Below are positions 26,071 through 43,056 of a stretch of DNA of 64,000 nucleotides, piece after piece. Under the pieces are notes generated by a model, which worked only from the letters and a program-made list of their open reading frames with translations, did not search any database and was not told where the DNA came from. The DNA is from Verrucomicrobiales bacterium (GTDB taxonomy: Bacteria > Verrucomicrobiota > Verrucomicrobiia > Verrucomicrobiales > DEV007), in contig JBLWYI010000013.1 of NCBI GenBank assembly GCA_048267005.1, positions 118,455-182,454 of the forward strand, read 5' to 3'. The position numbers and the translations under genes were made by a program. Within the stretch, counting starts at the first letter, position 1; each line of letters starts with the position of its first letter.

Positions 26071-26595
26071 TAGTAATGAGCCTTTTGTGTGTTGAGAGCC
26101 TGAACAGACGGGCTGGCTTGGACTTTTTCCTATGGTCCGACGCAGTTAAAGTTGAATTCGTTGAAAAACAGAACGGATTTTGGTGGTTAATGCGTTAATC
26201 AAAAGCAGGTTATAACCTTTGTTGAGTCTGTCTTGATTCCCCCTCAAACCAACCTGTTGCTGCGGTGAGTCGCCGTCCTCTCCCGCCGATATCACTTACG
26301 TAATTGTCCCGGCCGCCTCCCAAACAGGTGATTTGGCTGTGATATTTCTGGAAAATGGCTGTTTTCGGAGGCTGAAAGTCAAAATCGGCCCGTTGTGGCT
26401 ATTCGGATTTCCTTGCCAAAAGGGAGCGATTTCGTCATTCTGGCGTCATTACGTGGCACTTGTTTCCGCAGGGGTCCCTCTTGCTTAACCGCGCTTCGTA
26501 ACTATGTTTCTACTGGGTTGGTGTAATCTCGAGGCACCCATGCATTCCGAGATTTGTTCTGATCCTGTAAACTGTTTCAAGTTCCCTTCGACGTC

Positions 26596-29500
26596 ATGAA
26601 AAATCGTCCCACTCGCTCCTGCCTCAGCATTGCCGTATCCATATTAACGATTGGAGCCGTCCAGGCTGCGGATGACAAAAAAGCTGCGGCTGAAAAAATC
26701 ACTTATCAGGATCATGTGCTTCCTATTCTGGAAAACCGCTGCCTGAACTGCCACAACCCGGATGAAGCCAAGGGCGGACTCGACCTGTCTTCCTATGGCG
26801 CAACCATGAATGGTGGTTCCGGTGGTGAAGTGGTCATTTCCGAAGATGCAAACAGTTCGCGTCTCTACACGCTGACAGCTCATATTGAGACACCCAAGAT
26901 GCCGCCAGAGAAGCCAAAGTCTCCAGACAAAGAGCTCGAGACGATCAAGAAATGGATCGATGGCGGTCTGCTGGAAACGGCAAGTTCGAAAGCGAAGAAG
27001 TCGGACAAGCCCAAGCTGGATATGAATTTGATCACTTCGGTTGGTAAGCCGGAGAACCCCGCGATGCCGGAGCACTTGATTCTCGAGCCTGCGTTGGTGA
27101 CGGATCGTCCAAACTCGGTTCCGGCCATTGCGCACAGCCCGTGGGCTCCGATCCTTGCGGTGGCGGGTCAGAAGCAGGTGTTGCTCTATCACTCTGAAGA
27201 TTTCGATCTGCTGGGCGTTCTCCCTTACCCGGAAGGATTTCCGCAGTCGCTGAACTTTTCATCAAACGGATCGCTCCTCTCATGTGGTGGCGGTCGCGGT
27301 GGCAAATCGGGATCGGTTGTCGCCTGGGATGTAAAAACCGGTGAGCGGGTTATCGAAGTGGGAAAAGAATTCGATATTGTTTTGGGATCTGACATCTCAG
27401 CTGATCATCGCCGCGTGGTCATGGGGGGACCGGGCAAGAATATTAAGATTTGGGATACCGTTGCCGGCGAGCAGGTCAGCACGATTAAGAAGCACCCGGA
27501 CTGGATGTTGACGGCTGATATTTCTCCGGACGGAGTCCTTTTTGCGACAGGTGGTCGGAATTCGGGCCTTTATATATGGGAGACAGCAACCGGGCTGGAA
27601 TTTTACACCCTGAAGGGACACACCGGGGCCGTGACGGACCTGGCCTGGCGTCCGGACGGAAACGTTCTTGCATCGGTTTCCGAAGATGGACAGGCGATAC
27701 TCTGGGAAATGAATGAGGGCAAGCAGGTCAAAAAGTGGGCAGCCCACAGTGGCGGTGCGCTTGCGGTCGATATCGCCCCGGATGGAACGATTGCGACGGT
27801 GGGGCGTGATAAGAACCTGAAACTCTGGAAGGCCGATGGTGCGGCATTGAAAACGGTCGCGGCGAGTGATGACATTGTGATGAGCGTTGCTTTCTCTCAG
27901 GACAGCAAGCGGGTGATTACCGGTGATTACTCAGGAAACATCAAGGTTTGGAACATTGCGGACGGGGTGGAGCTGGCCAAGCTGGATTCGAATCCGCCAA
28001 CGATCGATCAGCAGCTTGCCTACTCGACGAAGCGGATTGCAGAAGTCCGCGGCAACCTTCCGAAGTTGCAGGAAGGCATCAAGGCGGCCGGCACGGAATT
28101 GACCGCTGCCACCGCCAAGGCAGGAGAAGTGAATAAGGCTTTTTCAGAGGCTGCCGGCAAAAAAGGGGCCGCAGAAAAGTTGGTCGCGACTCTGGATGGA
28201 CAGGTCAAGACTTACACGGCGCAGGTTCAGGCTGCGCAGAAGAACGTGGCGGCCAAAGCGGCTGATGCGAAGGCGAAGACAGATGCTTACAACGCCACGG
28301 TGACCGCACAGACAGAGGCGAAGAATGAGGTCACTAAGTGGACCGGGGCTTTCCAGAAAGCAGAAGCAGCCGCGAAACAGGCGGCGACGAATTTAGCAGC
28401 CGCCAAAGCTGCGGCTGAAAAACCCATGCTGGATGCGGCGACGCAAAAAGCGTTAACGGATGCCGTGAACGGCTACAACGCAGCGGATGCCGCCAAAAAG
28501 CAGGCAGATGCGAAGGTTGCTCAGGCAAAAGCGGCTGATGATGCCGCGAATCAAAAGCTGGCTGCGGCGAACAAGGCCAAGGCTGATAATGCCGCCAAGG
28601 TCACTGCGGCGACGGCAGCGGCAAAGAAAGCGGCTGATGCGCTGGCTGCCGCTTCCCAAAACGGTGCTGTTCCCCCTGCTCCGGTTGTTCAAGCTGATGC
28701 CGCTGCGAAGAAAGCCCTGCAGCAATCCCAGGCGGCATTGAACACGGCTTCTCAAGCGCAAGTGGCGGCACAAAATGCCAGGAACGCGACAGCGAAACAA
28801 CTCGCTGATGCCACTGCACTTCAGGCACCGGCTGCGAAGAAGCTGGCTGATGCGGGCGCGGCTCTGAAGCCGTTGCGCGAGAAAGAGGCGGCGGCAAAAG
28901 CGGTGCTTGATAAGGCGAAGGCTCTTTTGGCCCAGCGCACGACTGAGAATGCGGCTGCGGCGAAGGCACTGGCTGATAACAAAGCGCAACTGGACAATGC
29001 GAATAAGAATATCGCGGCCGCAGACGCCAAAGTGAAGTCGGCTCTGGGTGCCCGTGATGCGGCGAATGTCGCATCAAAAGCTGCCAGCGATGATCTGGCT
29101 GCGAAGAATAAGACTTTGGCGGATGCCAATACCAAACTGAAGACTTCAAAAGAGGAAGTCGCAAAGCTTACCGCTCTGGTTGATAATTTGACGAAGCAGA
29201 AAGAAGCCAGCGCAAAACTGGTCGCTGCAATCCAGAAGAAAGAGGCGGACGCCAAGAAGTCTGTCGAAGTCGCTCAGATGGAAGTTCAGACGAACGAGTT
29301 TCTGGTTAAGAAGTTCACTGCAGCAGCCATCAATCTGGATGCGAAGGAGCAGGCTGAAGAACTCGTGGAAATGACCGAGGAACTTGAGGAGAAAGTCGTG
29401 GAAGTGGCTGAAGCGAGTGAGGAATTCAAGAAAGCGGCTCAATCCCGTGCCGCTGCCGAGAAGACGCTCGCGGATGCGAAGAAGACCGTTGATGAAGGGA

Positions 29501-30090
29501 AGAAAGAGCTTTCGATGACTTCTTCCAACGTTCTCGAGAAAGCGATGCGACTTGCCGCGGCCCGTGCGGTGGCTGAAGTTCGTGCGGATGTGATTGGTGA
29601 AGTGGCCAGCGATGTTGAGCCGGACACCGACGCGAATCCTGAAACTGCAAATGCGGTTGCTGAAGGGGACATGCCGAAGGCCGACACAGAGGAGGAGGCA
29701 CCTATGGATCCCGATGAAGCCGAGGTGGTTGCCGTGGCTGCGGATGCGCTCTTGACTAAGAAATCACGTGAAGAGATCGAGAAAGAAATCGACGACTTGC
29801 GTGCCCGTCTCCAGACGCTGGAGGGTGTGATTCGTGAATCCTATGACAAGGCGGATAAGACTCATGAAACCGTGATGAAAGCCTCTGACGTCGCGGCGAA
29901 GACTCCGAAAGTGATTGAAGAGCGTGCCAGAATTGAGTCCATGAAAGCTCAGGAGAAACAAAAGATTGAGCAGGCAAAAGCACAGCAGGAAAAGGCTGTG
30001 GGCGATCAGAAGTCTAAGATTGAGTCATTGAAGAAGAAATATCTCGAGTCGGTTCCCAAGCGGGATGAGATCAAAAAGCCGGTCGAATAA
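26596..30090 (+). CDS. Large secreted protein: planctomycete cytochrome c-like domain + WD40 beta-propeller + ~700-aa Ala/Lys-rich coiled coil
   Basis: Signal peptide; 'CLNCHNPDEAKGGLDLSSY'; WD40-type repeats ('ILWEMNEG', 'KLWKADG', 'IKVWNIADG'); long AAKA/EAAK low-complexity helical region. Confidence 0.85.
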   Translation: MKNRPTRSCLSIAVSILTIGAVQAADDKKAAAEKITYQDHVLPILENRCLNCHNPDEAKGGLDLSSYGATMNGGSGGEVVISEDANSSRLYTLTAHIETPKMPPEKPKSPDKELETIKKWIDGGLLETASSKAKKSDKPKLDMNLITSVGKPENPAMPEHLILEPALVTDRPNSVPAIAHSPWAPILAVAGQKQVLLYHSEDFDLLGVLPYPEGFPQSLNFSSNGSLLSCGGGRGGKSGSVVAWDVKTGERVIEVGKEFDIVLGSDISADHRRVVMGGPGKNIKIWDTVAGEQVSTIKKHPDWMLTADISPDGVLFATGGRNSGLYIWETATGLEFYTLKGHTGAVTDLAWRPDGNVLASVSEDGQAILWEMNEGKQVKKWAAHSGGALAVDIAPDGTIATVGRDKNLKLWKADGAALKTVAASDDIVMSVAFSQDSKRVITGDYSGNIKVWNIADGVELAKLDSNPPTIDQQLAYSTKRIAEVRGNLPKLQEGIKAAGTELTAATAKAGEVNKAFSEAAGKKGAAEKLVATLDGQVKTYTAQVQAAQKNVAAKAADAKAKTDAYNATVTAQTEAKNEVTKWTGAFQKAEAAAKQAATNLAAAKAAAEKPMLDAATQKALTDAVNGYNAADAAKKQADAKVAQAKAADDAANQKLAAANKAKADNAAKVTAATAAAKKAADALAAASQNGAVPPAPVVQADAAAKKALQQSQAALNTASQAQVAAQNARNATAKQLADATALQAPAAKKLADAGAALKPLREKEAAAKAVLDKAKALLAQRTTENAAAAKALADNKAQLDNANKNIAAADAKVKSALGARDAANVASKAASDDLAAKNKTLADANTKLKTSKEEVAKLTALVDNLTKQKEASAKLVAAIQKKEADAKKSVEVAQMEVQTNEFLVKKFTAAAINLDAKEQAEELVEMTEELEEKVVEVAEASEEFKKAAQSRAAAEKTLADAKKTVDEGKKELSMTSSNVLEKAMRLAAARAVAEVRADVIGEVASDVEPDTDANPETANAVAEGDMPKADTEEEAPMDPDEAEVVAVAADALLTKKSREEIEKEIDDLRARLQTLEGVIRESYDKADKTHETVMKASDVAAKTPKVIEERARIESMKAQEKQKIEQAKAQQEKAVGDQKSKIESLKKKYLESVPKRDEIKKPVE

Positions 30091-30096
30091 GCGGCC

Positions 30097-30135
30097 GGAT
30101 CGACAGGGCAACAGGGTGTGATCGTAAAACGATCG
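30097..30135. repeat. REP-like repeat ('ggatcgacagggcaacagggtgtgatcg')
   Basis: Core CAACAGGGT in the short gap after the WD40 gene stop. Confidence 0.5.
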
Positions 30136-31647
30136 CGCCCTGAAAAAAGTCCGGCAGGGGAGTTGCGGCGTAGTAGTCTTACGTCGTTGAAATTTCTCTT
30201 CATATTACTTATCCCGATCCTTTTCGGAGGGAGTCTGGCAACAGGGCAGGAGTTGCCCGTTGCGGCGCGGATTCATTGTTCCGGTTGCCATCAGCCTCCC
30301 CGCCCCGGTTCCATGACCCGGGAGGCTTGGTTTCCTACGATCGCCATCATGCTCGAACTGATGGAGGAACAAAAGTTCCCCCTTCCGACCCGGAGCCAGT
30401 TTATTGAGATCACTGACTTTTACGTGAAGAACAGCCCGGTCGATTACGAACCGGCGAAGGACGACCTGGAGCCGTCGAAGATTCCTTTTGAAAAGGTAAC
30501 GGTGGGGGATAAGCCGGTCAATGAGCGGCCGCAGGTCACTAACGTGAGAGTTTGTGACCTGGACGGGGATGGGCAATCCGATGATGTGGTGGTCTGCGAC
30601 AATGAGTTTGGAACGGTCAGTTGGCTGCGATTGCTGGACGATGGAAAGACCTGGAAAGAAACCGTCATTGCGGAGGCGCCGGCTCCGGTGCGGTCGACTG
30701 TCTTCGATTTTGATGGCGATGGGGATATGGACATCGCGGTATCAGCGATGGGATTCATGCACCCTAACGATCGGTTGATCGGTGAGTTCCATTTGCTGCT
30801 GAACCGGGGAGATCAGACATTCGAGCAGAAAGTTCTGCTGAAGGGCACGCCACGCATTGCAGATATCGCCCCGGGGGATTTCGACGGGGATGGCGACTTT
30901 GATTTCGTGATCGCGATGTTCGGATGGCGGACGACCGGCGGGATCGGGCTGTTGACTCAGGAGGCAAACGGGAAGTTTAAATTTGATACGGTCTTCAAGA
31001 TCAACGGAACGATGCGGGTGACCCCTGCGGACCTGAACGGAGATGATAAGCTCGACTTTCTGGCACTGATCACGCAGGAGCACGAGACTATCGGGGGGTT
31101 TATGAATCAGGGGGACGGGAAGTTTGCAGATACGGTCGTCGCGAGAGCGAATCACCCGGTGTTCGGCTCATCGGGGATCGAGTGGGCCGACCTCGATGGT
31201 GACGGGGACATGGATATCGTCTACTCGAACGGCGATATGATGGATGAAAACCCTGAGCCGAAGCCGTATCACGGGATACGATGGTTTGAGAACAGAGACG
31301 GTAAGTGGATCTTGCACCAGATCGCCCAGATGCCGGGCTGCTTTTCGGGTTCGGTCCGTGATATGGATGGGGACGGCGACCTCGATATCGTTGCCTCAGC
31401 TCTGTACTTTCATTGGGATGTGCACGACTTTCCCAGCTTGATCTGGCTGGAGAATACCGGAGGCGCGAAGTCCTTCATACGCCGGAGGATTGCCTATGCC
31501 CCGTCAAACCTGGCGAGCACAGACGTGGGAGACCTGAACGGAGACGGTCTCCTCGATATTGTGGGCGGCGGGATGCATGTTCCCGGGCCGACGGGCCGCA
31601 AGGGACGCCTGACCCTATGGTTACAAAAGCCGGCGGAAACCGACTGA
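30118..31647 (+). CDS. FG-GAP / VCBS repeat beta-propeller protein (integrin-alpha-like), secreted
   Basis: Repeated 'DxDGDGDxD' loops ('DLDGDGQSDDVVV', 'FDFDGDGDMDIAV', 'DFDGDGDFDFV', 'DLDGDGDMDIV'). Start uncertain: GTG at 30118 lies inside the REP-like element; TTG at 30187 would yield signal peptide 'MKFLFILLIPILFGGSLA'. Confidence 0.75.
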   Translation: MIVKRSRPEKSPAGELRRSSLTSLKFLFILLIPILFGGSLATGQELPVAARIHCSGCHQPPRPGSMTREAWFPTIAIMLELMEEQKFPLPTRSQFIEITDFYVKNSPVDYEPAKDDLEPSKIPFEKVTVGDKPVNERPQVTNVRVCDLDGDGQSDDVVVCDNEFGTVSWLRLLDDGKTWKETVIAEAPAPVRSTVFDFDGDGDMDIAVSAMGFMHPNDRLIGEFHLLLNRGDQTFEQKVLLKGTPRIADIAPGDFDGDGDFDFVIAMFGWRTTGGIGLLTQEANGKFKFDTVFKINGTMRVTPADLNGDDKLDFLALITQEHETIGGFMNQGDGKFADTVVARANHPVFGSSGIEWADLDGDGDMDIVYSNGDMMDENPEPKPYHGIRWFENRDGKWILHQIAQMPGCFSGSVRDMDGDGDLDIVASALYFHWDVHDFPSLIWLENTGGAKSFIRRRIAYAPSNLASTDVGDLNGDGLLDIVGGGMHVPGPTGRKGRLTLWLQKPAETD

Positions 31648-31655
31648 AAACAGAC

Positions 31656-32135
31656 TCAGTTTGTACCCAGGTCTTTCTGGATCTGTTCGAAATCTCCCTC
31701 TTCGCAGCAGCGGACGAATCCTTCAATGAAGGCTTTCAGCTTATCCCATACGAGTCGGATCTGAGCGGACTCTTCGGGGGTGATGGTATTATCAAGGGCT
31801 GCCTGTGAAACTACAGTGAGGAGTCCGGCGAACTGCTGGACGATTTCGTGGGTGGCTGGAACCACTTCATATCCCTCCTGGCAGGAGCTTTTCGGGTTGT
31901 TGACGAAATAGCCGCCGGCCTGCTGGCTGAGCCATTCGACAATGGCCGGTTCTTTGGTCAGCTGAATGAGCTGTGAGACCCGATCGAGCGGGTTCTTACT
32001 GCCGGAACCGTTTTCCGAGTTGGGTTGGGCCCACTTATAAACGAGCGAAAGAGAGACCCCCATTTCAGAGGCGATTTCTTTCGGGCTGGTCGTTGGGCTT
32101 TCGAAGGCAGTCTTGAGGACCTCGTGCGATTCCAT
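31656..32135 (-). CDS. Small HTH DNA-binding protein (putative transcriptional regulator), divergent from the NfeD-flotillin operon
   Basis: ATG at 32135 ('MESHEVLKT...'); HTH-like 'SPKEIASEMGVSLSLVYKWAQ'; ORF-track 70-codon upstream extension rejected. Confidence 0.6.
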   Translation of the reverse strand: MESHEVLKTAFESPTTSPKEIASEMGVSLSLVYKWAQPNSENGSGSKNPLDRVSQLIQLTKEPAIVEWLSQQAGGYFVNNPKSSCQEGYEVVPATHEIVQQFAGLLTVVSQAALDNTITPEESAQIRLVWDKLKAFIEGFVRCCEEGDFEQIQKDLGTN

Positions 32136-32420
32136 AGGCGTAGATTTTGGTTTAATTAGTGGGATAAAACAAGCTTCGGTTTTCTGAAGTTGAGACGATT
32201 TCATCAGAACAGCCCGGGATCGTCCGTTATAAACGCCTGTCTGTATTGTAACGGGAGTGATGACATCGTCGAAACTTACAAAAGTATCGACCAATTGTAA
32301 TGGGCAAAGGACGGGCAACGGGGCAACATCCTCACATGCGGTCAAAATAAGAGTAAGCCAGCTTGACGAACCTCATTTGAATTTTACACACTACCCACCA
32401 AGAACCACAGACCACAAGCC

Positions 32421-33167
32421 ATGCCAGAAATCATCCAGGAAGCGTTCAGGGGAATCAACCTTCCGATCACCATCGCACTTGGTGTCATTCTACTTTACTG
32501 GATAATCGCCATGTTGGGTATGATCGACCTGGATGCCATCGACGGATTTCTGGGGCTTGATACGGACGTTCACGTTGATGTGGACGGGCACGGGCACGGG
32601 CAAGGGGGCGACTCCGTAGATGGACACGGTGATGTTGAAGGACACGGCGAGGGGGCAACTCCTGAATCCCATTCGCCGAATGCCTTTCAGGCTGTTGCAA
32701 AGTTCATGGGCGCACAAGATGCGCCCATCATGTTTGTGCTGAGCACCTTCACGCTCATTCTCTGGGCGGGGAATTTGATCGGGAACTATTATTTCAACAA
32801 AGGTGACTCCACCTTTCTCGCCAACTGCATTCTGGGAGCCAGTCTGGTGGGCGCTTTCCTGCTCACCAAGCTTACGGTGCGCCCGCTCCGGCCTTTGATG
32901 AAAATGATGCGAACCGCATCGAACAATGAGCCTGTGATCGGAATGGCGGGAACGGTCCGCTCCAAAGAATTAACCATCGAATCAGGACAGGTAGAGGTGA
33001 TACAGGATGGCGCGTCCATTTTGTTGAATGCCCGGCTCTCCGAAGGTGCGTCCCGGCAGGTTGATCGAGGTGCTCAGGTATTGATCGTTGCGCGCGACGA
33101 TGACGGTAAGCGCTACGTGGCCAGGCCTCTCACACCCATTTCACAGAAAGAAACCAATAACAATTAA
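32421..33167 (+). CDS. NfeD-like membrane protein (short form, C-terminal OB-fold) with His/Asp/Gly-rich insert
   Basis: N-terminal TM helices, His-rich loop 'HVDVDGHGHGQGGDSVDGHGDVEGHGEG', C-terminal beta-rich NfeD-type domain; immediately upstream of an SPFH gene (canonical pairing). Confidence 0.75.
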   Translation: MPEIIQEAFRGINLPITIALGVILLYWIIAMLGMIDLDAIDGFLGLDTDVHVDVDGHGHGQGGDSVDGHGDVEGHGEGATPESHSPNAFQAVAKFMGAQDAPIMFVLSTFTLILWAGNLIGNYYFNKGDSTFLANCILGASLVGAFLLTKLTVRPLRPLMKMMRTASNNEPVIGMAGTVRSKELTIESGQVEVIQDGASILLNARLSEGASRQVDRGAQVLIVARDDDGKRYVARPLTPISQKETNNN

Positions 33168-33192
33168 CTGAAAACCGGAACCCTAAGAAACT

Positions 33193-35283
33193 ATGATACT
33201 AGCAGATATACCATTTTGGGCTCAGATCCTTGGATTCGCGATAGTCGCGGTCGTTGTGATTCTGTTCGCCACCGGCATCGTCTATGCCAGCCTCTTTAAA
33301 AAGGTTAAGAAAGGAACCGCTCTGGTCGTGACCGGTTCGGGAGGAACAAAAGTCTCCTTTAACGGGATCTTTGTTATTCCGATCTTTCATCGTGTTGAAG
33401 AGATCGACCTGTCTGTAAAGCGGATGGAGGTCGACCGGACCGGAGCGAACGGCTTGATCTGTAAGGACAACATGCGGGCGGACATCAAAGTTGCCTTCTT
33501 TGTCCGGGTGAATCCAACCAAAGACGATGTCATCCGCGTTGCGAATTCAATCGGGTGTGAGCGGGCTTCGAGTCTCGCTGAGGTTGAGCATCTGTTTGAT
33601 GCGAAGTTTTCTGAAGCCTTGAAGACTGTTGGTAAGCGCTTCAACTTCATTGAGCTTTATGAGGAACGGGACACCTTCCGTGATGAGATGATCAAGTTGA
33701 TCGGGACAGACCTCAATGGGTTCTCTCTTGAAGATGCGGCGATCGATTTCCTTGAGCAAACTCCACTGAGTTCGATGGATCCGGACAACATTCTCGATTC
33801 AGAAGGTATCAAGAAGATTACCGAACTGACCGCTACCCAGGCAAAGCTGGCGAACAATATTCAACGTGACAAGGAAAAGGTCATAAAGCAGCAGGACGTC
33901 GAGGCGAAGGAAGCAATTCTTGAGCTGGAACGACAGCAGGAAGAAGCGGTGTCCAAGCAGGCCCGCGAAGTGGCCAACGTTCGTGCCCGTGAGGAGGCGG
34001 AGTCTGCGAAAGTCATGCAGGAAGAAAAGCTGAAGTCCGAGCGTGCCCGGATTCAGACTGAAGAGGAAGTCGAGATCGCGACTCAGAACAAAGAGCGTGA
34101 GGTGATCGTTGCCCAGCGTAACAAGGAACGGACTGATGCCGTGGAACTTGAGCGGGTGAAGCGTGATCAGGAGCTTGAGGCGATCGAGCGGGACCGTGTT
34201 ACAACTCTGAAAGAGATCGAGAAGGAGAAGGCGGTTGAGATCGAGAAGAAGGAGATCCAGGACGTGATCAAGGAGCGCGTCGCAGTTGAAAAGCTGGTGG
34301 TTGAAGAGCAGCAGAAGATTCTCGATACCGAGGCCTTTGCCGGAGCTGATCGTGAGAAGCAGGTTGCCGTGACACTTGCGGAGAAGACAGCGCAGGAAGG
34401 CTTGATTCAGAAGATCAAAGAAGCCGAGGCAGCCAAGGAAGCGGCCCAGCTCAAGGCGGATCAGGACCTTTACGAGGTTGTGAAAAGAGCAGATGCCAGC
34501 AAGCAGGCTGCTGAATTGAAAGCTGAGGAAGTGGTCGTGGCCGCGGAAGCAGAGCAGACCGCATCAGAGAAACTCTCTGTGGCGAAGAAAACTCTCGCTG
34601 AAGGTGTCAAAGCTGAGATGGCGGCTCCCGGGTTGGGTGAAGCTGATGTGGTTGCTGCCCGCGGTAAAGCGGAAGCGTCTGCGGTTCAGGCGAAAGGCCT
34701 GGCGGAAGCTGAGGCAATCAGAGCGCATGGTTTGAGTGAAGCTGAAGGTATCGATGCGAAAGCGGATGCGATGAAGAAATACAACGACGCCGGTAAAGAG
34801 CATGAAGAATTCAAGCTCAACCTTGAGAAAGCGAAGGCGGTTGAACTCGCTGAGATCGAAGTTCGTGCCAAGGTTGCGGCGAAGCATTCTGAGGTCATGG
34901 CTGAAGCGCTTAAGTCTGCCAATATCGACATTGTCGGTGGTGAGACTGAGTTCTTCGACAAGATCACGAGTGCCATCACTCAGGGGAAAGCGGTTGACCG
35001 TCTGGTCGATAACAGCCACACCCTGACTACGGTTCGCGACACGTTCTTCACGGGTGATCCTGAAGATTTCCAGATTCAGATTCGCGAGTTCGTGGATCGG
35101 TTTGGAGTCTCCAGTGATGACCTGAAGAATCTCTCGATTGCCGCACTTCTCACCAGCATGATTGACCAGGCAGGTGACGATGGTGATACCAAGGGTAAGC
35201 TTGGCAGCATGTTAGGTGCCGTGAAGCGCTTCGGTATCAGCGACGAAAATGCCGGAAAAGTAATCAAGCGATTGACCAGTTAA
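33193..35283 (+). CDS. Flotillin / SPFH (band 7) family protein with extended E/A/K-rich coiled coil
   Basis: N-terminal TM anchor; SPFH core 'FIVPIFHRVEEIDLSVKRMEV...DIKVAFFVRV'; 696 aa, longer than typical FloT/YqiK. Confidence 0.9.
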   Translation: MILADIPFWAQILGFAIVAVVVILFATGIVYASLFKKVKKGTALVVTGSGGTKVSFNGIFVIPIFHRVEEIDLSVKRMEVDRTGANGLICKDNMRADIKVAFFVRVNPTKDDVIRVANSIGCERASSLAEVEHLFDAKFSEALKTVGKRFNFIELYEERDTFRDEMIKLIGTDLNGFSLEDAAIDFLEQTPLSSMDPDNILDSEGIKKITELTATQAKLANNIQRDKEKVIKQQDVEAKEAILELERQQEEAVSKQAREVANVRAREEAESAKVMQEEKLKSERARIQTEEEVEIATQNKEREVIVAQRNKERTDAVELERVKRDQELEAIERDRVTTLKEIEKEKAVEIEKKEIQDVIKERVAVEKLVVEEQQKILDTEAFAGADREKQVAVTLAEKTAQEGLIQKIKEAEAAKEAAQLKADQDLYEVVKRADASKQAAELKAEEVVVAAEAEQTASEKLSVAKKTLAEGVKAEMAAPGLGEADVVAARGKAEASAVQAKGLAEAEAIRAHGLSEAEGIDAKADAMKKYNDAGKEHEEFKLNLEKAKAVELAEIEVRAKVAAKHSEVMAEALKSANIDIVGGETEFFDKITSAITQGKAVDRLVDNSHTLTTVRDTFFTGDPEDFQIQIREFVDRFGVSSDDLKNLSIAALLTSMIDQAGDDGDTKGKLGSMLGAVKRFGISDENAGKVIKRLTS

Positions 35284-35465
35284 ATTAACAAGGCGGGTCC
35301 ACCGGTTGCGACAATTCCTCGTTGCACCGTGGACCGACGCCGTATTTGAGGGCCGTTTGGCTTTGCCTGAACGCTACCTTCCAAGAGGTATCGAACGAGG
35401 AAGACAAATTATAGAGAACCACGGGAGGACGAGAGATCGTTGATGTCCTTGGAGCTGAAAACAAC

Positions 35466-38400
35466 ATGCCCGAAGAACCAATAGAAAAAAACACTGACGC
35501 CGGGGCGTCAGGAGCGGAGCAGCAACTCGAAGGCGGTGCCTACGAGATCATCCGGAACCGCCTCACGCAGCACGGTTCGGATCTGCGAACCCGGCTTGGG
35601 AAACTCAACTCGGAACGGCAGGCCGTCTTTGGTGCCGTTGAGCCTGCCTTAATCGCGACCGAGCGGGTAACGACCGACAATAATTGTGAAGCCCGTGACA
35701 TCATCGCTGTCGGCGATAACAAGTTCATCTTTGGTTACAATGTTCACATCGGTCTTAAGTCGATAACTGATCTTGCAGATGTGTTTGCGGCTTATGAATA
35801 TGATCCTGACACGCACACATTTTCGGATGTGGGATTGGATATTCTGAACAAGGGCACTTTTGCCGAGGACTTTCTTTACCTGTATAAATACTATCGGGAA
35901 ACAGTCTTCGTGAAGTTTATGAAGATCGGGCCGCACCTCTACATGGCGTTCCGGGTGGGCAAAAAGGTGGATGACATCAAATGCTTCAAGTGGCTCATCA
36001 AAGAGGGTGGTGTTCTGGAATACATTGGCAACCGGTTCGATCATGAATACAGGTTTCCGCCTCAGCAGGAGTTTGAGTGGGTGCGCGCACATCGCGGGAT
36101 GTACCGCGAGGGGATGCACCCGCATGTTTCGATCGACGACCGGCTTTTTGTTGAGACCGTGGGAGGCGACCTGACTGTAAAGGTCGAGGACAACACAGAG
36201 TCAGGGGAGGGGATTTACGAAGAGCAGGTGACCAATGAGGATCAGACTCTGGATGACGCCGAGATCTTTTATGCCATTGTCGGCAGCCTCATTTTGTTGA
36301 AGGTCCTGCCTTATCAGGAAAAGGATTACCGCTACCTCGTCTACAATGAGAAAGTCAAGTCGGTCACCAGGATTGATTCGATCGCAAACTCCTGTGTGTT
36401 GCTTCCGGAAGATCACGGGATCATCTTTTCCGACGGCTTTCACCTTCAGACAGGGGATACCAAGCGTTTCGATTCAGGACTGAGAGATATGCTCTTTGAG
36501 CGACGGGTCGCTTCGCCCAATGGAGAGGATTTCCTTTACGTGTTTTACAACCGGCTGTCAGGGACCTATGTCCTGATGTCGTACAATCTCATCGATCAGA
36601 AGGTTGATAACCCGATTGTTTGCAACGGTTACACCGTTTTTAAAAACGGGGAGTTGATCTACTTCCGCACGGATGAAGAACCGAAGAAACACCATGCTCT
36701 TCAAGTCTGGACAACGCCCTACATGGAGGGCGAGTTCCGTGTCGATGAGAAGACGGACAGCTACCTTTTCAAGATCGGGAACGCAGAGGTGGTGCGTGCC
36801 ATGGCGGAGTGCCATGAGATATTAAATCTGATCTCCCGGGATGATTCTTACGCCGACTTGTATGTGGATCTGACCAAGAAAGCTGGTGACCTGATTGATA
36901 CTTACTTCTGGATTGGCCAGGAAGCTGCGTTCAACTTGAAAGCTGCCCTTGGTGAAATCAAGGGAGCTGCAGAGGCAGCAATATCCGAGTTTGACAAGGT
37001 TCAACGCCTTCGCAAATCAACGGCTGACGAGTCAAAACGGGTTTCCGATTCAGCGAAACAAATCGCTAAGGCGGCGCGTAATACACGCCCCGATGACATC
37101 ATGGGTTTCGTCCACCGGTTATCGGAATTGCGGACCGTTCGTGGAGAAATTATTTCCCTGAAGGATCTGCGTTACGTTGACTCTGATACGGTTGAATCTC
37201 TCGAAGCTGAGGTGGTCGAGGCTACCGAAATGGTGTCGCAGAACTGTGTGGAGTTTCTTCTGGAGCCTGTTGCACTTGATCCTTACCGAGAGCAGGTCTC
37301 AGTTCAGGAGAAACGGGTTCCTGAAGTGGCGAAAGTAACTGAGGCGGATCAGGTTGAGGAGGAACTCGACAAGGCCGGAGCGGAGTTGGAGATGCTGATT
37401 GAGATCGTCACGAACTTAAAGATTGAAGACGCGACGCAGACCACGCAGATCATTGATGATATATCGGCCATCTACGCGACGCTGAATGCGGTTCGTGCTT
37501 CGCTAAGGAATCGCCGCAAGGCACTTTCGAAAACCGAAGGCGCGGCTCAGTTCGGGGCGCAGGTAAAGCTGATCAACCAGGCCGTGATCAATTATCTGGA
37601 TTTGTGTGAGACGCCGGAAAAGACCGACGAGTATCTCTCCAAGGTCATGGTCCAGCTCGAGGAACTTGAGGGGAACTTTTCGGACTTCGAAGATTATGTT
37701 GATGAACTGACCGAAAAGCGGGACGAGATCTACAACGCGTTTGAATCAAAGAAAGTCGCTCTTGTCGAAGCGCGAAACAAACGGGCTGGATCGCTCGTGA
37801 AGTCAGCCGAGCGGGTTCTCACTACAATTCAGCATCGACTTTCCAGTCTCGATTCAATCCCGGATATCAATGGCTATCTTGCTGGCGATTTGATGGTCGA
37901 GAAAGTGCGGGATATCATTGAACAGCTCAATTTGGTCGGGGATTCCGTCAAAGCCGACGACATTCAGACACGGCTGAAAACGCTGAGGGATGATTCAGTT
38001 CGTCAGCTAAAAGACCGCCAGGAGCTGTTTGTCGACGGAAAGAATATTATCCAGTTCGGGAACAATAAGTTTTCCGTCAATTCACAGGAGTTGGAGCTCT
38101 CAATTGTTCCGCACAATGAGAAGATGTGTTTTCACCTGAGCGGGACAGATTTCTTTGAAGCTGTAACCGATGAAGAATTTCTATCGACAAAATCGGTCTG
38201 GAATCAGGAAGTGCTTTCAGAAAACCGAACCGTTTATCGTGCTGAATATCTGGCGTGGAAGTGTTTGCAAGCCGGTGTGGAGCCGACTCTCGAAGCCGTT
38301 CAGAAATTCATGGCTCCGCGATACGCGGAGGGTTATACCAAAGGAGTTCACGACCGCGATGGATTTGCCATCTACGAAAAGCTGCATTCGGTTCACAGCC

Positions 38401-40661
38401 AGGTTGGGTTGCTTCGTTTTGCTCCTGAAGACCGGGCGCTTGCGTTGCTGTTCCTTCACCAGTGGAAAACAGATGGGGGGCATGATCAACTCGCGAAGAA
38501 GATTCGTGGCCTTGGAATTCTAAGAGAGAGTTATGCTTCGGATGCGGTGGCTGAAATTTACGTTGGGGAAATCAAAGACGAGCTCAATCATTTTCTCGAA
38601 ACCAGTGCGAGAAACTGCCCTCGCCTTAAAGCGGCAAATATTGATCAAGCGGCTGAGTATTTGTTTTTCGAATTACTCGATGCAAAGAAGTTTGCGATAT
38701 CGCCTCAAGCTGGCGAGGTCGTGAAACAGTTTCAGCATACGTTAACCGCGAAGCGGCTTGAGAAGCAGTTCGCGGCCGCGGTGGAAGGTTTCAATGGTGA
38801 TGCCACGGGACGCTTCGAAGTCACTCGCGACTGGATCGAGGGAATCTGTGGAGCTGAGATTGAGAAGAATGAGGTTTCCCCTGATCAACTGTCAACGGAC
38901 GGAGAGAAGCAGGAACGATCCAACACTGTAAGTTCGTTGAACGTACCCTATTGGATCGAAGCGGCGGTTCATCTGGTTCGGGGAGGGTTTGAATTGACGG
39001 CGATTCAGCAGATTGAAATGTCAGCCGCTTTGGAGGGGATTACCGGGTCGCACTCACTTGTGGAAGACGGGGTTTACCAGTTCGATTATATCAATTTCAC
39101 TCAGAGGTTGCGTCGTTTTGAAACCGAGGACGCTCCGCGCTTCGCTGCGTATCAGCATCGCAAAACCGATTTGATCGAATCCAAGCGCGAGGAGATGCGT
39201 TTGGAAGAGTTTAAGCCCAAGGTGATGTCTGCATTTGTGCGGAATAAATTACTGAACCGAATCTATCTCCCGTTGATCGGTGACAATCTGGCGAAGCAAA
39301 TGGGAACTGCCGGTGCGGATACCCGGACAGACCGAATGGGAATGTTGCTTCTGATTTCTCCGCCCGGATACGGAAAGACGACTTTGATGGAATACGTCGC
39401 CAACCGGTTGGGGATCACATTCATGAAGATCAACGGGCCGGCCATCGGGCATGATGTGACTTCCCTGGATCCGGAAGAAGCGCCCAATGCAAGCGCCCGC
39501 GAGGAGGTCAACAAGCTGAACCTGTCGCTTGAGATGGGGGACAATGTCATGATTTATCTCGATGACATTCAGCACTGCAACCCTGAGTTTTTGCAGAAGT
39601 TTATTTCGCTATGTGATGCTCAGCGGAAGATCGAGGGCGTCTGGAAAGGCAAGCCGCGCACTTATGACTTGAGGGGAAAAAAGGTCTGCGTCGTGATGGC
39701 TGGAAACCCTTACACCGAGAGCGGTGGCAAGTTTCAGATTCCCGACATGCTCGCGAACCGGGCGGACACTTATAATCTGGGGGATATCATCGGGGCTCAT
39801 TCCGGTGACTTCGAGGCGAGTTACGTCGAGAACTGCCTCACTTCGAACTCTGTCCTGAGTCAACTCGCCAGTCGCAGTCAGTCGGATGTCTATTCGGTGA
39901 TGAAGATTGCGGAAACGGGCAGCCACGAAGGAGTCGACTTTGAAGGGAACTATTCGATGGAAGAGATTGAAGACTTGGTCTCGGTGATGAAGAAGTTGAT
40001 GCGGGTTCGCGATACGATCCTGCGGGTAAATATGGAATACATCCGTTCCGCCGCGATGGAAGATGACTACCGCACCGAGCCACCATTTAGAATGCAGGGC
40101 TCATACCGGAACATGAACCGGATCGCTGAGAAGATCTTACCGATCATGACGGATGCCGAGGTCGAGCAAGTGATTATGGATCACTATGAAAATGAATCGC
40201 AGACGCTGACGGCCGGAGCGGAGGCAAATTTGCTGAAATTCCGGGAGCTGGAAGGGATTCAGACTGATGAGGAGAAAGTGCGGTGGGATGAGATTAAATC
40301 GAAGTTCAATCGCAATCAGTTGATGGGCGGACGTGGTGAAAACGATCCTGTCTCACGGGTGGTTGGCACGCTGGCGAGTATTCATGAAACTCTGGCAAAA
40401 GCGGCAACGCACCAGATGCAGCCTGCTACGTTGGCTGATGTAACGGTTGAGAGGTTGGCTGAAATTATTGCAAACCTGCGAGCGGTTCCGGTGGATGTAG
40501 AGATCAAGGTGGTTCCCGTTCACGAAGGCGAAGAAGAGGGGCCTCCTAAGAAGGTATCGAAAAAGAAGTCAGCTAAAACGAAAAAGATCTCAGGCAAGGA
40601 GATCAACCTTCCCGTGGATGTTGAGGCTGTCGTCGACCAAAAAGATGGTAATTCGGACTAG
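35466..40661 (+). CDS. Giant (1731 aa) protein of unknown function with a single MoxR/AAA_5-like P-loop ATPase module near the C-terminus
   Basis: ATG at 35466; Walker A 'SPPGYGKTT' (~aa 1290), Walker B 'VMIYLDDIQH', sensor-1-like 'VVMAGNP', Arg-finger-like 'DMLANRADTY'; ~1250 aa upstream with no motifs I recognise; Lys-rich C-terminal tail. Confidence 0.85.
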   Translation: MPEEPIEKNTDAGASGAEQQLEGGAYEIIRNRLTQHGSDLRTRLGKLNSERQAVFGAVEPALIATERVTTDNNCEARDIIAVGDNKFIFGYNVHIGLKSITDLADVFAAYEYDPDTHTFSDVGLDILNKGTFAEDFLYLYKYYRETVFVKFMKIGPHLYMAFRVGKKVDDIKCFKWLIKEGGVLEYIGNRFDHEYRFPPQQEFEWVRAHRGMYREGMHPHVSIDDRLFVETVGGDLTVKVEDNTESGEGIYEEQVTNEDQTLDDAEIFYAIVGSLILLKVLPYQEKDYRYLVYNEKVKSVTRIDSIANSCVLLPEDHGIIFSDGFHLQTGDTKRFDSGLRDMLFERRVASPNGEDFLYVFYNRLSGTYVLMSYNLIDQKVDNPIVCNGYTVFKNGELIYFRTDEEPKKHHALQVWTTPYMEGEFRVDEKTDSYLFKIGNAEVVRAMAECHEILNLISRDDSYADLYVDLTKKAGDLIDTYFWIGQEAAFNLKAALGEIKGAAEAAISEFDKVQRLRKSTADESKRVSDSAKQIAKAARNTRPDDIMGFVHRLSELRTVRGEIISLKDLRYVDSDTVESLEAEVVEATEMVSQNCVEFLLEPVALDPYREQVSVQEKRVPEVAKVTEADQVEEELDKAGAELEMLIEIVTNLKIEDATQTTQIIDDISAIYATLNAVRASLRNRRKALSKTEGAAQFGAQVKLINQAVINYLDLCETPEKTDEYLSKVMVQLEELEGNFSDFEDYVDELTEKRDEIYNAFESKKVALVEARNKRAGSLVKSAERVLTTIQHRLSSLDSIPDINGYLAGDLMVEKVRDIIEQLNLVGDSVKADDIQTRLKTLRDDSVRQLKDRQELFVDGKNIIQFGNNKFSVNSQELELSIVPHNEKMCFHLSGTDFFEAVTDEEFLSTKSVWNQEVLSENRTVYRAEYLAWKCLQAGVEPTLEAVQKFMAPRYAEGYTKGVHDRDGFAIYEKLHSVHSQVGLLRFAPEDRALALLFLHQWKTDGGHDQLAKKIRGLGILRESYASDAVAEIYVGEIKDELNHFLETSARNCPRLKAANIDQAAEYLFFELLDAKKFAISPQAGEVVKQFQHTLTAKRLEKQFAAAVEGFNGDATGRFEVTRDWIEGICGAEIEKNEVSPDQLSTDGEKQERSNTVSSLNVPYWIEAAVHLVRGGFELTAIQQIEMSAALEGITGSHSLVEDGVYQFDYINFTQRLRRFETEDAPRFAAYQHRKTDLIESKREEMRLEEFKPKVMSAFVRNKLLNRIYLPLIGDNLAKQMGTAGADTRTDRMGMLLLISPPGYGKTTLMEYVANRLGITFMKINGPAIGHDVTSLDPEEAPNASAREEVNKLNLSLEMGDNVMIYLDDIQHCNPEFLQKFISLCDAQRKIEGVWKGKPRTYDLRGKKVCVVMAGNPYTESGGKFQIPDMLANRADTYNLGDIIGAHSGDFEASYVENCLTSNSVLSQLASRSQSDVYSVMKIAETGSHEGVDFEGNYSMEEIEDLVSVMKKLMRVRDTILRVNMEYIRSAAMEDDYRTEPPFRMQGSYRNMNRIAEKILPIMTDAEVEQVIMDHYENESQTLTAGAEANLLKFRELEGIQTDEEKVRWDEIKSKFNRNQLMGGRGENDPVSRVVGTLASIHETLAKAATHQMQPATLADVTVERLAEIIANLRAVPVDVEIKVVPVHEGEEEGPPKKVSKKKSAKTKKISGKEINLPVDVEAVVDQKDGNSD

Positions 40662-40703
40662 ACCGAATTATCCACCTTCGTAGCCTCCCAAGCGCGCCAC
40701 TTA

Positions 40704-40726
40704 GGCGGTTGCTACGCCGCCTTTTT
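40704..40726 (+). terminator. Possible terminator hairpin (ggcgg..gccgcc + TTTTT) overlapping the 3' end of the convergent sulfatase gene
   Basis: Short GC stem with a T-run ~45 bp after the giant gene stop; weak. Confidence 0.3.
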
Positions 40727-42295
40727 CTTCTGGTCTGCTTTAGGTTTGGCTTTCCCCTTGTTTTTCATTCTCTGATCACGTCGACTTGGAGGGTCCTGTG
40801 CCGGGAGCTGATAAACTTCGCGCAGACGTTTCAGCTCAGCTTCGAGCGCCTTCTGAATTTCTGCGTATTCCGGCTTGCCGTGAACAGAGACAAGTTCGTT
40901 GGGATCTTTTTGGATATCGAAAAGCTCGAATTCGGCGGGTTCAAGATTGTAATAATGAATCAGCTTATGTTTTCCATCAGTGACGCCGTAGTGGCGGGCC
41001 ACGGAGTGCGCTCCGGGGAACTCATAGTAGTGATAGTAAAAAGAAGTCCGCCAGTCTTCGGGGGTGTTTCCTTTAAAGATAGGAACGAGGCTCTTGCCTT
41101 GCATATCGGCCGGTACTTCGACGCCTGCGAGATCCAAAAAGGTTTCTGCAAAGTCGAGGTTCGAGACAATGTCGTTGTTGACCGAACCGGGCTTGATGAC
41201 GCCGGGCCAGCGGGCGAGAAGTGGTGTCTTGAGTGATTCTTCATACATCCAGCGTTTGTCGAACCATCCATGTTCACCAAGATACCAGCCTTGGTCACTG
41301 GAATAAATAACGATGGTGTTCTCAGCCAGCCCGGCTTCCTCAAGGTAGTCAAGAACGTCGCCGATTGCGTCATCTACAGACTTCACACAGCGGAGGTAGT
41401 CCTTCACGTAGCGCTGATATTTCCATTTGATGATTTCCTTCTCCGTCATGGAGTCACGCTTTGCGAGATAGGCTTCATTCTTCGGCTTGTAGGCTGCGTC
41501 CCATGCCGCCCGCTGCTCAGACGTCAGGTTTCCTGGGGCTTTTAGTTTCAAGTCGGCTTCGGTAAGATGCCGTTTGATTTCCATGGTCTGCTTTCCCGCG
41601 GGGCTCGCCCGGTTGGCGTAGTCGTCAAACAGTGTTTGGGGTTCGGCGATCGTTTCATCGTCCAGCCAGGTCAGGTATTTCGGCCCGGGTTGCCAGTTGC
41701 GGTGCGGGGCTTTGTGCTGAAACATCAGCATGAATGGTTTGTCGTCCTTGCGCTGGTTCTTCAGCCAATCGAGGGCTTTATCGCGGATGATATCAGTGGT
41801 GTATCCGATATGTTCCCGCTTGGTTGCTTTTGCTTCAATGCCACCGTGGAGCATGGGTGGATTGTAATAGGGGCCCTGTCCAACAAGAACGTCGAAGTAA
41901 TCGTAACCCTGTGGAGTCGATCCAAGGTGCCACTTACCGACGACGGCAGTCTGATACCCGGCGGCGTGGAGCAGTTTAGGAAAGGTCTGTTGATCTCCGT
42001 TGAAGGTATTCCCGTTGGTCATGAAACCGTTGAGATGACTGTACTTTCCGGTTTGAATGACGGCGCGACTTGGGCCGCAAATACCGTTCGTGACATAACA
42101 GCGTTTGAATTTCATGCCTTCATTAGCAATGCGATCCATATGAGGCGTGATGATTCGGGAATCATCATAGGCGCTCAGTGCCTGCTCACAGTGATCGTCC
42201 GTGAAGATAAAAACGATATTTGGCCGGTCAGCAGATCGGGCGACGCCGGCCAGCAGCAAACTGCAGAGCAGGATTACAGGGGTGAAATTCTTCAT
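40712..42295 (-). CDS. Sulfatase (secreted)
   Basis: ATG at 42295 gives signal peptide '[22 protein letters not shown]'; '[15 protein letters not shown]' sulfatase motif. Confidence 0.9.
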
Positions 42296-42435
42296 GGCGA
42301 TAAAGTGACTGAAATTGAGGTGAGCGGCAATCCCACGAATGGGCCTCTTTCTTCGGAACAAGGTTGAAGTGTTTGCTTTTTCATGCAAAATCGACTGATC
42401 GATTCGTCAAACTCGTATCGTTATCTGATCCTAAG

Positions 42436-43056
42436 ATGAAAAATCTTCTTCGTTCCTCTCCCGTTTTCGCACTCTTTGCTGCTGTGTTCCAGGTCTGTGG
42501 CCCTGAGTTATTTGCTGTCGACTTTGATGAGGATGTTGAGCCCATTCTCCGGAAGAAGTGCTTCAAGTGCCACTCCGGTCCCCGTGCCAAGGGTGGCTTG
42601 CGGATGGATAACAAAACGTATTTTCAGAAGAAGATCGCGGAAGAGGATGGAATCCCGATTTTCCCCGGCCACCCTGAAAAGAGTTTGATGGTTAGAAAGA
42701 CATCGTTGCCCCGTACCGACACGGACGCCATGCCGCCGCCAACGCGTGGCGAGCCTTTGTCTGCTGTTGAGCTTGGAACAATCAAGAAATGGATCACCGA
42801 AGGTGCAAAGCTGGAAAAAACGGAGGGGACTGATGCTCCCACCACTCCCGACACTGATCCAAAACCTGCTGCGGACATGACCAAGCTTCACACTTGGACC
42901 AACACGGAAGGAAATTCGCTGAAAGCTGCGTTCGTAAAGCTTGATGGACGAAATGTGGTGTTGAAGAAAGAGGACGGAAGCGAGTTCTCCTACCCAATGT
43001 CGAGTCTTGCGGCTGAGAGTCGAAAGCTCGCAACTGACTTGTCTACTGCTCAGTAA
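42436..43056 (+). CDS. Secreted planctomycete cytochrome c-like domain protein with C-terminal SHD1-like domain
   Basis: ATG at 42436 ('MKNLLRSSPVFALFAAVF'); 'CFKCHSGPRAKGGLRMD'. Confidence 0.75.
   Translation: MKNLLRSSPVFALFAAVFQVCGPELFAVDFDEDVEPILRKKCFKCHSGPRAKGGLRMDNKTYFQKKIAEEDGIPIFPGHPEKSLMVRKTSLPRTDTDAMPPPTRGEPLSAVELGTIKKWITEGAKLEKTEGTDAPTTPDTDPKPAADMTKLHTWTNTEGNSLKAAFVKLDGRNVVLKKEDGSEFSYPMSSLAAESRKLATDLSTAQ

Follow-up and report, generated by a model that had tools for sequence, protein, structure and literature searches.

A flotillin locus with a giant ATPase gene

We analyzed a 64,000-nucleotide stretch of DNA (the window) from Verrucomicrobiales bacterium (GenBank assembly GCA_048267005.1, contig JBLWYI010000013.1, positions 118,455 to 182,454 of the forward strand), and within it a cluster of four genes around a flotillin. 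Three of these genes are co-directional and encode, in this order, an NfeD-like membrane protein of the YqiJ/YuaF type, a divergent flotillin of the YqiK type and a giant AAA+ ATPase of 1731 residues, while the fourth is divergent and encodes a small helix-turn-helix (HTH) regulator (Table 1). This three-gene module is widespread, and the window copy of it is complete. An earlier sequence-only reading of this DNA had placed four open reading frames (ORFs) here, all of which were borne out by the ORF map. The distances that it gave between them (26, 183 and 286 bp) were each too long by one: the NfeD-like and flotillin genes are 25 bp apart, the flotillin and giant genes 182 bp, and the divergent HTH and NfeD-like genes 285 bp. 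The G+C content is even across the four-gene region.

Table 1. Features of the locus, in window coordinates unless a locus handle (L) is given.
Feature	Position	Strand	Basis
CII-like HTH regulator gene, 159 aa	ORF 31656-32345, likely 31656..32135 from ATG at 32135	-	ORF map
Candidate operator/promoter dyad TTACAA-N13-TTGTAA(T)	32276..32301	.	Intergenic alignment of five loci
YqiJ/YuaF-type NfeD-like membrane protein gene	32421..33167	+	hhalign, hydropathy
Divergent YqiK-type flotillin (SPFH) gene	33193..35283	+	hhalign, NCBIfam, hydropathy
Stable hairpin without U-tract, inside the flotillin-giant spacer	35292..35341	+	RNA fold
Giant soluble AAA+ ATPase gene, 1731 aa, DUF3686 family	35466..40661	+	Pfam, homologs
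DUF3686 domain: N-terminal helix, about seven four-stranded beta units (propeller-like), helical bundle	35580..36908	+	
DUF7902, within the long helical/coiled-coil middle (aa ~500-1250)	37272..37520	+	Pfam E 1.1e-28, composition
Single AAA+ module	39333..39875	+	Walker A GYGKTT 39366-39383; Walker B IYLDD 39555-39569
Terminator-like hairpin with T-run, 42 bp past the giant gene stop	40703..40722	+	Consensus scan
Spacer-equivalent stretches holding inserts in relatives (among others)	L001:9410-9784, L002:9100-9666, L029:8612-9698, L038:9344-9901, L010:9573-9977		

The giant gene and the flotillin gene occur together across phyla

Using a diverse alignment of the ATPase, 80 reference-genome loci were collected from Verrucomicrobiota, Planctomycetota, Bacteroidota, Desulfobacterota, Clostridia and Kiritimatiellota, which together with contigs L001 and L002 gave 82 genome-derived loci. 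The 62 that have at least 3.2 kb of upstream sequence, L001 and L002 included, were counted. A flotillin gene lies directly 5' of the ATPase gene on the same strand in 59 of the 62, with a median gap of 160 bp, and a YqiJ-like gene is also present upstream of the flotillin gene in 54. In the reciprocal direction, 80 metagenome loci were collected with the flotillin alignment, of which the 57 that extend at least 1.5 kb downstream were counted; an ATPase gene starts directly 3' of the flotillin gene in all but one (56/57). Judged by gene order, the function of the giant ATPase is coupled to that of the NfeD-flotillin pair. The linkage holds in either direction and across at least six phyla, and its strength is about the upper limit for gene-neighborhood evidence. 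Co-conservation of the giant gene with flotillin, which the sequence-only reading had proposed as a check, is therefore found in these loci, and the absence from relatives that it named as evidence against a connection is not.

The two genes could also be neighbors by chance, the giant gene having nothing to do with the NfeD-flotillin pair. Consistent with this are the 182-bp spacer with its stable hairpin, the three of 62 loci without a flotillin, and E. coli yqiJK, which has no such partner. However, the same order and strand at the 59 of 62 and 56 of 57 loci from at least six phyla refute it, and in relatives the spacer is often shorter than 100 bp, the ORFs even overlapping in L077/L078. 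We give chance adjacency practically no credence.

The three proteins have correlated pairwise-identity matrices (r = 0.72-0.81), as expected for proteins that are inherited together, and this correlation is not proof of a physical interaction. Over 1700 aa, mean identity across phyla is 50%. Compared with the window copy, the ATPases of Desulfobacterales and Bacteroidota are 52-54% identical and those of some Verrucomicrobiota 46-48%. The ATPase tree thus departs from taxonomy, which indicates that the module was transferred between phyla.

A divergent YqiK-type flotillin and its YqiJ-like partner

When aligned with E. coli YqiK using hhalign, the flotillin family gave a probability of 100% and an E-value of 1.7e-39, with 32% identity over 402 columns. 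The alignment spans the transmembrane anchor and the SPFH domain and runs into the coiled coil, where it ends at about residue 430. Hydropathy predicts one transmembrane segment, at residues 12-30. The coiled coil comprises about 350 Glu/Ala/Lys-rich residues (the fraction of E, K, Q, A, R and L is 0.57-0.70 across residues 201-600), and the C-terminal domain is conserved, specific to this subfamily and does not align with YqiK. For the window flotillin, Pfam returned no match, including to Band_7, and the Pfam 'Flot' C-terminal domain was undetected. Band_7 detects only one of 15 family members (E 2.6e-4), the NCBIfam FloT model gives 31 bits (E 1e-7) against a cutoff of 700, and a search of PDB sequences with the flotillin profile returned only the QmcA coiled coil, at an E-value of 0.004. 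Because it falls below these curated cutoffs, yet homology to YqiK is clear by profile-profile comparison, the window protein is assigned on sequence grounds to a divergent YqiK-type subfamily and not to FloT itself.

The family alignment of the NfeD-like protein matches E. coli YqiJ over its full length, including the C-terminal beta-rich region (hhalign probability 96.4%, E 1e-9). Three hydrophobic segments (residues 14-32, 103-121 and 131-149) correspond to three predicted transmembrane segments, and the layout is completed by an acidic His/Asp/Gly-rich loop and the C-terminal beta-rich domain. The match to Pfam YqiJ_N is weak for the window protein (16.5 bits) and above the cutoff for relative L033 (34 bits). 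The window protein has no match to Pfam NfeD, and a PDB sequence search with the NfeD-like profile returned none, while an NfeD-like structure has been reported for both YuaF and YqiJ (PMC2636767). The labels NfeD and flotillin given in the sequence-only reading therefore stand as homology to YqiJ and YqiK, but not as Pfam NfeD or Band_7 assignments. The loop behind the first transmembrane segment (residues ~45-85) is strongly acidic, with D-x-D repeats family-wide, and in the window copy it is also rich in His and Gly (HVDVDGHGHGQGGDSVDGHGDVEGHGEG). Given this composition, it may bind cations or metals.

The giant protein combines DUF3686 with a single AAA+ module

More than 4223 homologs of the giant protein were found at E<1e-10, nearly all of them 1600-1800 aa long and named 'DNA repair ATPase' at NCBI. 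When the N-terminal 1,200 residues were searched exhaustively, 431-954 clusters at 50% identity emerged, and at least 582 reference genomes have a relative. A look-up of contigs by the exact sequence of the window's own protein gave no record. About 1250 N-terminal residues had been read as devoid of recognizable motifs, but this region carries two Pfam families. DUF3686 (PF12458) covers residues 39-481 (E 8.8e-183; 608 bits against a cutoff of 25), the match extending over profile positions 1-448 of 448, and DUF7902 covers residues 603-685 (E 1e-28). The protein has no transmembrane segment by hydropathy, its middle region is helical by composition, and its tail is Lys-rich.

An AlphaFold2 model of residues 1-520, with a predicted local distance difference test score (pLDDT) of 71, starts with a helix, which is followed by about seven beta units of four strands each (residues 75-415) and then by a helical bundle. 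When this model was compared with the PDB using Foldseek, all significant matches were beta-propellers (BamB, the propellers of acylaminoacyl and prolyl peptidases, and WD40 proteins). Such a structural search had been suggested for the whole unassigned N-terminal region; it was run for the first 520 residues, and although the matches are of propeller type, their TM-scores are only 0.12-0.22. With moderate confidence, the DUF3686 head is thus predicted to consist of propeller-type blades, in agreement with the published description of such ATPases discussed below.

The motifs GYGKTT, IYLDD, AGNP and ANR and the Lys-rich tail, all noticed in the sequence-only reading, are present in the translation, with AGN as sensor-1 and an invariant Arg in ANR, and its single ATPase core corresponds to one AAA+ module, with AAA_5 among the Pfam matches. 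At residues 1294-1417 Pfam AAA scores 31 bits (cutoff 21.2) and AAA_5 25.9 bits (cutoff 22). The Walker B motif ends in Asp-Asp, not Asp-Glu, and both residues (IYLDD, residues 1364-1368) are invariant in a diverse family alignment. In an AlphaFold2 model of residues 1229-1731 (mf282521d023d, pLDDT 67), the AAA+ core has a beta-hairpin between helix alpha-3 and the sensor-1 strand (residues 160-173 of the segment), and a helix-2 insert is not clearly visible. Its closest Foldseek matches (E 1e-5 to 2e-4) are RuvB, Skd3/ClpB, Lon, NorQ and MCM, all of which are ring-forming AAA+ enzymes with a pre-sensor-1 hairpin. Searches of PDB sequences, with either the full ATPase or a profile of the AAA region, matched only ~40 residues around Walker A, in p97/VCP/RuvB. 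We rejected these matches as a guide to the clade, their coverage being too small. Membership in the classical AAA clade (Vps4/p97/FtsH) is unlikely, given the pre-sensor-1 hairpin in the model and the lack of a MIT or protease domain in Pfam.

The sequence-only reading had called the core MoxR/AAA_5-type. Because sequence matches are limited to the Walker A area and the nearest folds are mixed, that label is only plausible: AAA_5 is above its cutoff, but the fold matches are not confined to the MoxR family and there is no VWA partner. The giant protein differs from RavA, NorQ and CbbQ in its ~1250-residue N-terminal extension. Like them, it has the AAA_5 match, a sensor-1 region (NP...G...P..L.NR) resembling MoxR-type motifs, and the MoxR-family protein NorQ among its top structural matches along with the pre-sensor-1 hairpin. 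These features raise the possibility of an assembly chaperone similar to MoxR or CbbQ/NorQ, which would insert or mature a client membrane complex in a flotillin microdomain and would not act on flotillin itself; in S. aureus, FloA-NfeD has been reported to stabilize unfolded proteins (PMC13086221). However, RuvB, Skd3 and Lon score at least as well as NorQ in Foldseek, and clustering of all locus ORFs found no VWA-domain gene or other recurrent client gene with the triad. The near-obligate two-way coupling to one flotillin subfamily points to flotillin itself as the partner, and we regard a chaperone for some other client as rather improbable, though an alternative to be taken seriously.

The family name invites another explanation, in which the protein is a DNA repair ATPase acting on DNA and the membrane proteins tether this process to the envelope. 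In addition to the Pfam description 'ATPase involved in DNA repair' and the NCBI name, this could draw on RuvB, one of the proteins that the P-loop region matches best in fold and sequence, on the Lys-rich tail, and on the XRE-type regulator of Bacteroidota, a cHTH+protease protein (PMC11237479). The likeness to RuvB, however, is that of a generic AAA+ core (~50 residues in sequence searches), and neither Pfam nor NCBIfam detects a nuclease, helicase-specific or DNA-binding domain. Every conserved neighbor is a membrane or membrane-stress protein, so the name is without support in the genomic context. No paper linking the family to DNA repair was found, nor did searches under the family names (DUF3686/PF12458, or 'DNA repair ATPase' with flotillin) find any literature. 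We take the name to derive, most likely, from coiled-coil likeness to SbcC/Rad50-type proteins (whose COG0419 was formerly labeled 'ATPase involved in DNA repair'), and consider a role in repair very improbable. Between this name and a flotillin invisible to Band_7, automated annotation hides the link between the two genes.

Relation to known operons and ATPases

The sequence-only reading knew of no described flotillin operon with a partner of this size or architecture, but one has been published. A survey in mSystems (2024; preprint 2020) describes an operon of YqiJ/YuaF, a band-7/flotillin protein and a 'beta-propeller + coiled-coil + AAA+ ATPase' (PMC11237479). In its full form the operon joins CesT/Tir-PspA to these three further genes, with a phospholipase D (PLD) gene in some Proteobacteria; 'abbreviated' operons without CesT/PspA are widely distributed, and a role in sub-membrane dynamics and assembly was proposed (PMC11237479). 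The Dokdonia donghaensis row of Table S3 in that paper reads, in our terms, as cHTH divergent from CesT_Tir - PspA - YqiJ - flotillin - ATPase, the Bacteroidota XRE-type regulator being a cHTH+protease of the CI/LexA-like kind. The window has the same three proteins in the same order and on the same strand and represents the abbreviated form: unlike the full operon it has neither CesT-PspA nor PLD, and its CII-like regulator and dyad are not mentioned in the paper. The Flavobacteriia/Bacteroidota loci collected here reproduce the paper's full architecture with a DUF3686 protein in the ATPase position. Identifying the published ATPase with the DUF3686 family thus relies on identical architecture within the same bacterial family, and not on a shared accession. 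The operon type is therefore already known from computational work, and is neither a new kind of system nor a planctomycete peculiarity. What we add is the identification with DUF3686, the two-way coupling statistics, the Pfam-invisible flotillin subfamily, the variable insertion slot, the lineage-specific CII-like regulator with its dyad, and a list of tractable carriers.

The simpler pairs E. coli yqiJ-yqiK and B. subtilis yuaF-floT have the same order and predicted topology as the window pair, and the spacing is nearly the same (26 bp in E. coli vs. 25 bp in the window). E. coli has no third gene, sib/ibs loci lying behind yqiK. The window flotillin differs from those of both pairs in belonging to the Band_7-invisible subfamily, in its longer coiled coil and in its own conserved C-terminal domain.

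Coupling of an AAA+ ATPase to a membrane scaffold has precedents. At the inner membrane, FtsH is paired with the SPFH cage HflK/C (PMC13220708, PMC12005517). FtsH is a membrane-anchored AAA protease of the classical clade, enclosed on the periplasmic side of the HflK/C cage, whereas the giant protein has no transmembrane segment and no protease domain, has a pre-sensor-1 hairpin in its model, and has as its gene neighbor a flotillin that probably faces the cytoplasm. The two are alike in logic only, and there is no homology beyond the AAA+ fold. In the Vps4/ESCRT-III and PspA-linked AAA+ systems, as in the triad, an ATPase is genetically coupled to a membrane-remodeling polymer, and the triads of Bacteroidota and of plasmid pQBR103 share an operon with PspA, which is itself a member of the ESCRT-III superfamily. 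The giant protein is unlike Vps4 in having no MIT domain, in probably not belonging to the classical clade and in being about four times larger, and the window has no PspA.

The divergent regulator, the probable transcription unit and the spacer

The divergent regulator matches Pfam Phage_CP76 (E 4.3e-7; 30.4 bits against a cutoff of 26) and, weakly, NCBIfam YmfL, and NCBI gives members of its cluster at 90% identity the name 'phage regulatory CII family protein [Verrucomicrobiales bacterium]'. A CII-like gene stands beside the module in only seven of the 82 genome-derived loci, all of them close relatives. When the divergent intergenic regions of five loci were aligned (mean identity 43%), TTACAA-N13-TTGTAA was the sole well-conserved block. 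The pattern has one match in the window against 0.01 expected, and among 163 loci its exact form is confined to L002-L005 and L010, the loci with the divergent CII-like gene. The dyad is thus a candidate operator and/or promoter element, and the regulator with its dyad is specific to this lineage. One relative, L004, has a second exact copy of this type of dyad (L004:7812-7837) at the end of the YqiJ-like gene, immediately before the flotillin gene.

A consensus scan found no terminator-like site on the + strand between the three genes and one behind the giant gene (Table 1). A strong terminator/promoter pair setting the giant gene apart had been named in the sequence-only reading as evidence against a connection. 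On this basis the triad is probably transcribed as one unit, starting in the 285-bp divergent region and ending at the hairpin past the giant gene.

The spacer between the flotillin and giant genes varies among relatives. The RNA of 35284-35465 folds at -59.5 kcal/mol (z = -2.17), and the hairpin within it is not flagged by the terminator scan. A conserved RNA structure was considered and rejected, the hairpin not being conserved in the closest relatives checked (L003-L005); lying just behind the flotillin stop, it might affect the ratio of flotillin to ATPase expression. In about half of the relatives the spacer, empty in the window, is occupied by small same-strand genes, among them PDDEXK_3, an IS200-like Y1 transposase, a DUF559 endonuclease-like protein, DMP19, SHOCT, DUF3592 and DUF3997. 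A conserved gene at this position was likewise rejected because the inserted ORFs are unrelated to one another. The spacer behaves like an insertion hot spot within an otherwise rigid operon.

Gene neighborhoods, carriers and the source lineage

Clustering of all locus ORFs revealed one further recurrent gene set only, consisting of CesT, PspA and XRE genes in Bacteroidota. In 14-16 Bacteroidota loci, including Flavobacteriaceae, an XRE-HTH gene diverges from CesT_Tir_1 (E 5e-56), PspA_IM30 (E 9e-41), YqiJ-like, flotillin and ATPase genes, in that order. On the Pseudomonas fluorescens plasmid pQBR103 (L164:1-4158) the operon opens with PspA and closes with the triad, and also holds a rhomboid protease, DUF2491, DUF350, DUF1190 and a glutathionylspermidine-synthase-like gene. 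In Vibrio campbellii (L166:13834-15612) a PLD-family gene (PLDc_2) starts at the ATPase end without a gap and is followed by TelA, and in Proteus mirabilis (L167:3681-5461) a divergent LemA gene and a TPM-domain gene adjoin the triad. In Streptomyces, RefSeq lists a 'flotillin family protein' beside a 'DNA repair ATPase'. Carriers include Bacteroidota, Clostridia, Desulfobacterota, Proteobacteria, Actinomycetota and Deinococcus, and the module is not specific to the Planctomycetes-Verrucomicrobia-Chlamydiae (PVC) group.

The window itself belongs to an ordinary chromosomal setting of this group. A 17.9-kb locus from a Verrucomicrobiales metagenome-assembled genome (L003) is collinear with window positions 24734-43055 at ~75% nucleotide identity. 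The flanks consist of a 1164-aa PSCyt1 + WD40 protein and a 509-aa FG-GAP repeat protein on one side (26596-31647) and a convergent sulfatase on the other (40712-42388), and L003 has the same PSCyt1, FG-GAP and sulfatase flanks. Genes of these three kinds are common in the PVC group. The sequence-only reading had taken the source for a planctomycete and had linked the cluster to endocytosis-like uptake; the collinearity with L003 and the Verrucomicrobiales-named regulator cluster speak against that origin, and the endocytosis framing is unsupported because the module is spread over many phyla beyond the PVC group.

Some of these features could also fit an anti-phage or abortive-infection system, in which flotillin and YqiJ would be a membrane sensor or effector and the ATPase a sensor or switch that triggers membrane collapse. 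The regulators are of phage type (CII/CP76-like here, XRE-HTH in Bacteroidota), the distribution suggests transfer between phyla, the spacer is a variable slot for small genes, a PLD-family gene is coupled to the module in Vibrio, a STAND NTPase lies upstream in L028, and a Bub-type ubiquitin-like system adjoins the L001 copy. However, a PADLOC-DB 2.0 search with the four proteins gave no significant match (marginally, IetA at E 0.001 over 30 P-loop residues and mad1 at E 0.0012), no copies were found in 50,697 phage records or 2.9 M IMG/VR contigs, and only 13 were found among 72,556 plasmid records. The recurrent partners are membrane-stress genes (PspA, CesT, TelA, LemA/TPM, polyamine) and not defense genes, the window cluster is surrounded by sulfatase, FG-GAP and other common PVC genes in a collinear arrangement, and the ATPase, at a mean identity of 50% between phyla over its 1700 aa, is conserved to a degree unusual among defense genes. 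We therefore judge a role in phage defense to be distinctly unlikely.

In Oceaniferula spumae a Bub/Bil-type ubiquitin-like cluster (Multi_ubiq/Prok-E2_E, Prok-JAB/ThiF, BubE) and a deaminase gene lie directly 3' of the ATPase gene (L001:16938-19399), which suggests defense-island-like surroundings in that genome.

A possible role in remodeling flotillin cages

The reading that we favor, at slightly better than even chances, is that the giant protein uses ATP to remodel a flotillin cage, or to extract clients from it, during membrane stress. Cages of SPFH proteins have been reported (PMC13086221, PMC11260169, PMC13000311). By analogy with HflK/C, QmcA-YbbJ and flotillin-1/2, the flotillin would be anchored in the inner membrane by its N-terminal transmembrane segment and would oligomerize, together with its YqiJ-like partner, into a cage on the cytoplasmic face. 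The ATPase would form a ring, as is proposed because its fold matches ring-forming AAA+ enzymes, and would dock on the cage through its propeller head or its stalk, the subfamily-specific C-terminal domain of flotillin being a candidate docking site. ATP would then power either changes in the cage itself (its assembly, opening, disassembly or recycling) or the extraction of client proteins, and the module would serve in a response induced by membrane damage. Membrane stress is proposed as the setting because the triad is joined elsewhere to PspA, a CesT-like chaperone, PLD, TelA, LemA/TPM and polyamine genes.

Several observations weigh against this cage-remodeling proposal. Contact between flotillin and ATPase is suggested by gene coupling and analogy, and the literature searched holds no experimental work on any family member. 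Three of the 62 loci have the ATPase among unrelated genes with no flotillin next to it. The invariant Asp-Asp Walker B may mean that ATP turnover is slow or switch-like and not motor-like. Both AlphaFold2 models are of moderate confidence, and the predicted propeller superposes poorly on known propellers. In the window and at most non-Bacteroidota loci PspA is missing near the triad, and a tblastn search of the 64-kb window for PspA- or CesT-like sequence found none (E > 0.8), so the link to the phage shock protein (PSP) response is indirect here. Finally, the single transcript relies on a consensus terminator scan, which we grade as weak evidence.

A stronger form of the cage-remodeling proposal is that the giant ATPase is the first dedicated ATP-driven remodeler of an SPFH/flotillin cage, as Vps4 is for ESCRT-III or NSF for SNAREs, with a flotillin subfamily that co-evolved with it. 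This we put forward tentatively, as an analogy that could well fail. If true, bacterial flotillin microdomains would gain an energy-dependent cycle of assembly and disassembly, which has never been demonstrated before.

Flotillin deletions usually give weak phenotypes (e.g. PMC13086221, PMC2636767). One flotillin subfamily almost never occurs apart from a 1,700-residue ATPase, and this pairing gives experiments a concrete starting point. Because tractable carriers exist (Proteus mirabilis, Vibrio campbellii, Pseudomonas fluorescens SBW25 plasmid pQBR103, Streptomyces and Hymenobacter), the module can be addressed outside an uncultured verrucomicrobium. A specialist familiar with the survey of PSP partners would be unsurprised by the operon, and its biology could matter for understanding bacterial flotillins. 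The near-obligate pairing with an ATPase suggests that the life of an SPFH cage includes an energy-consuming step.

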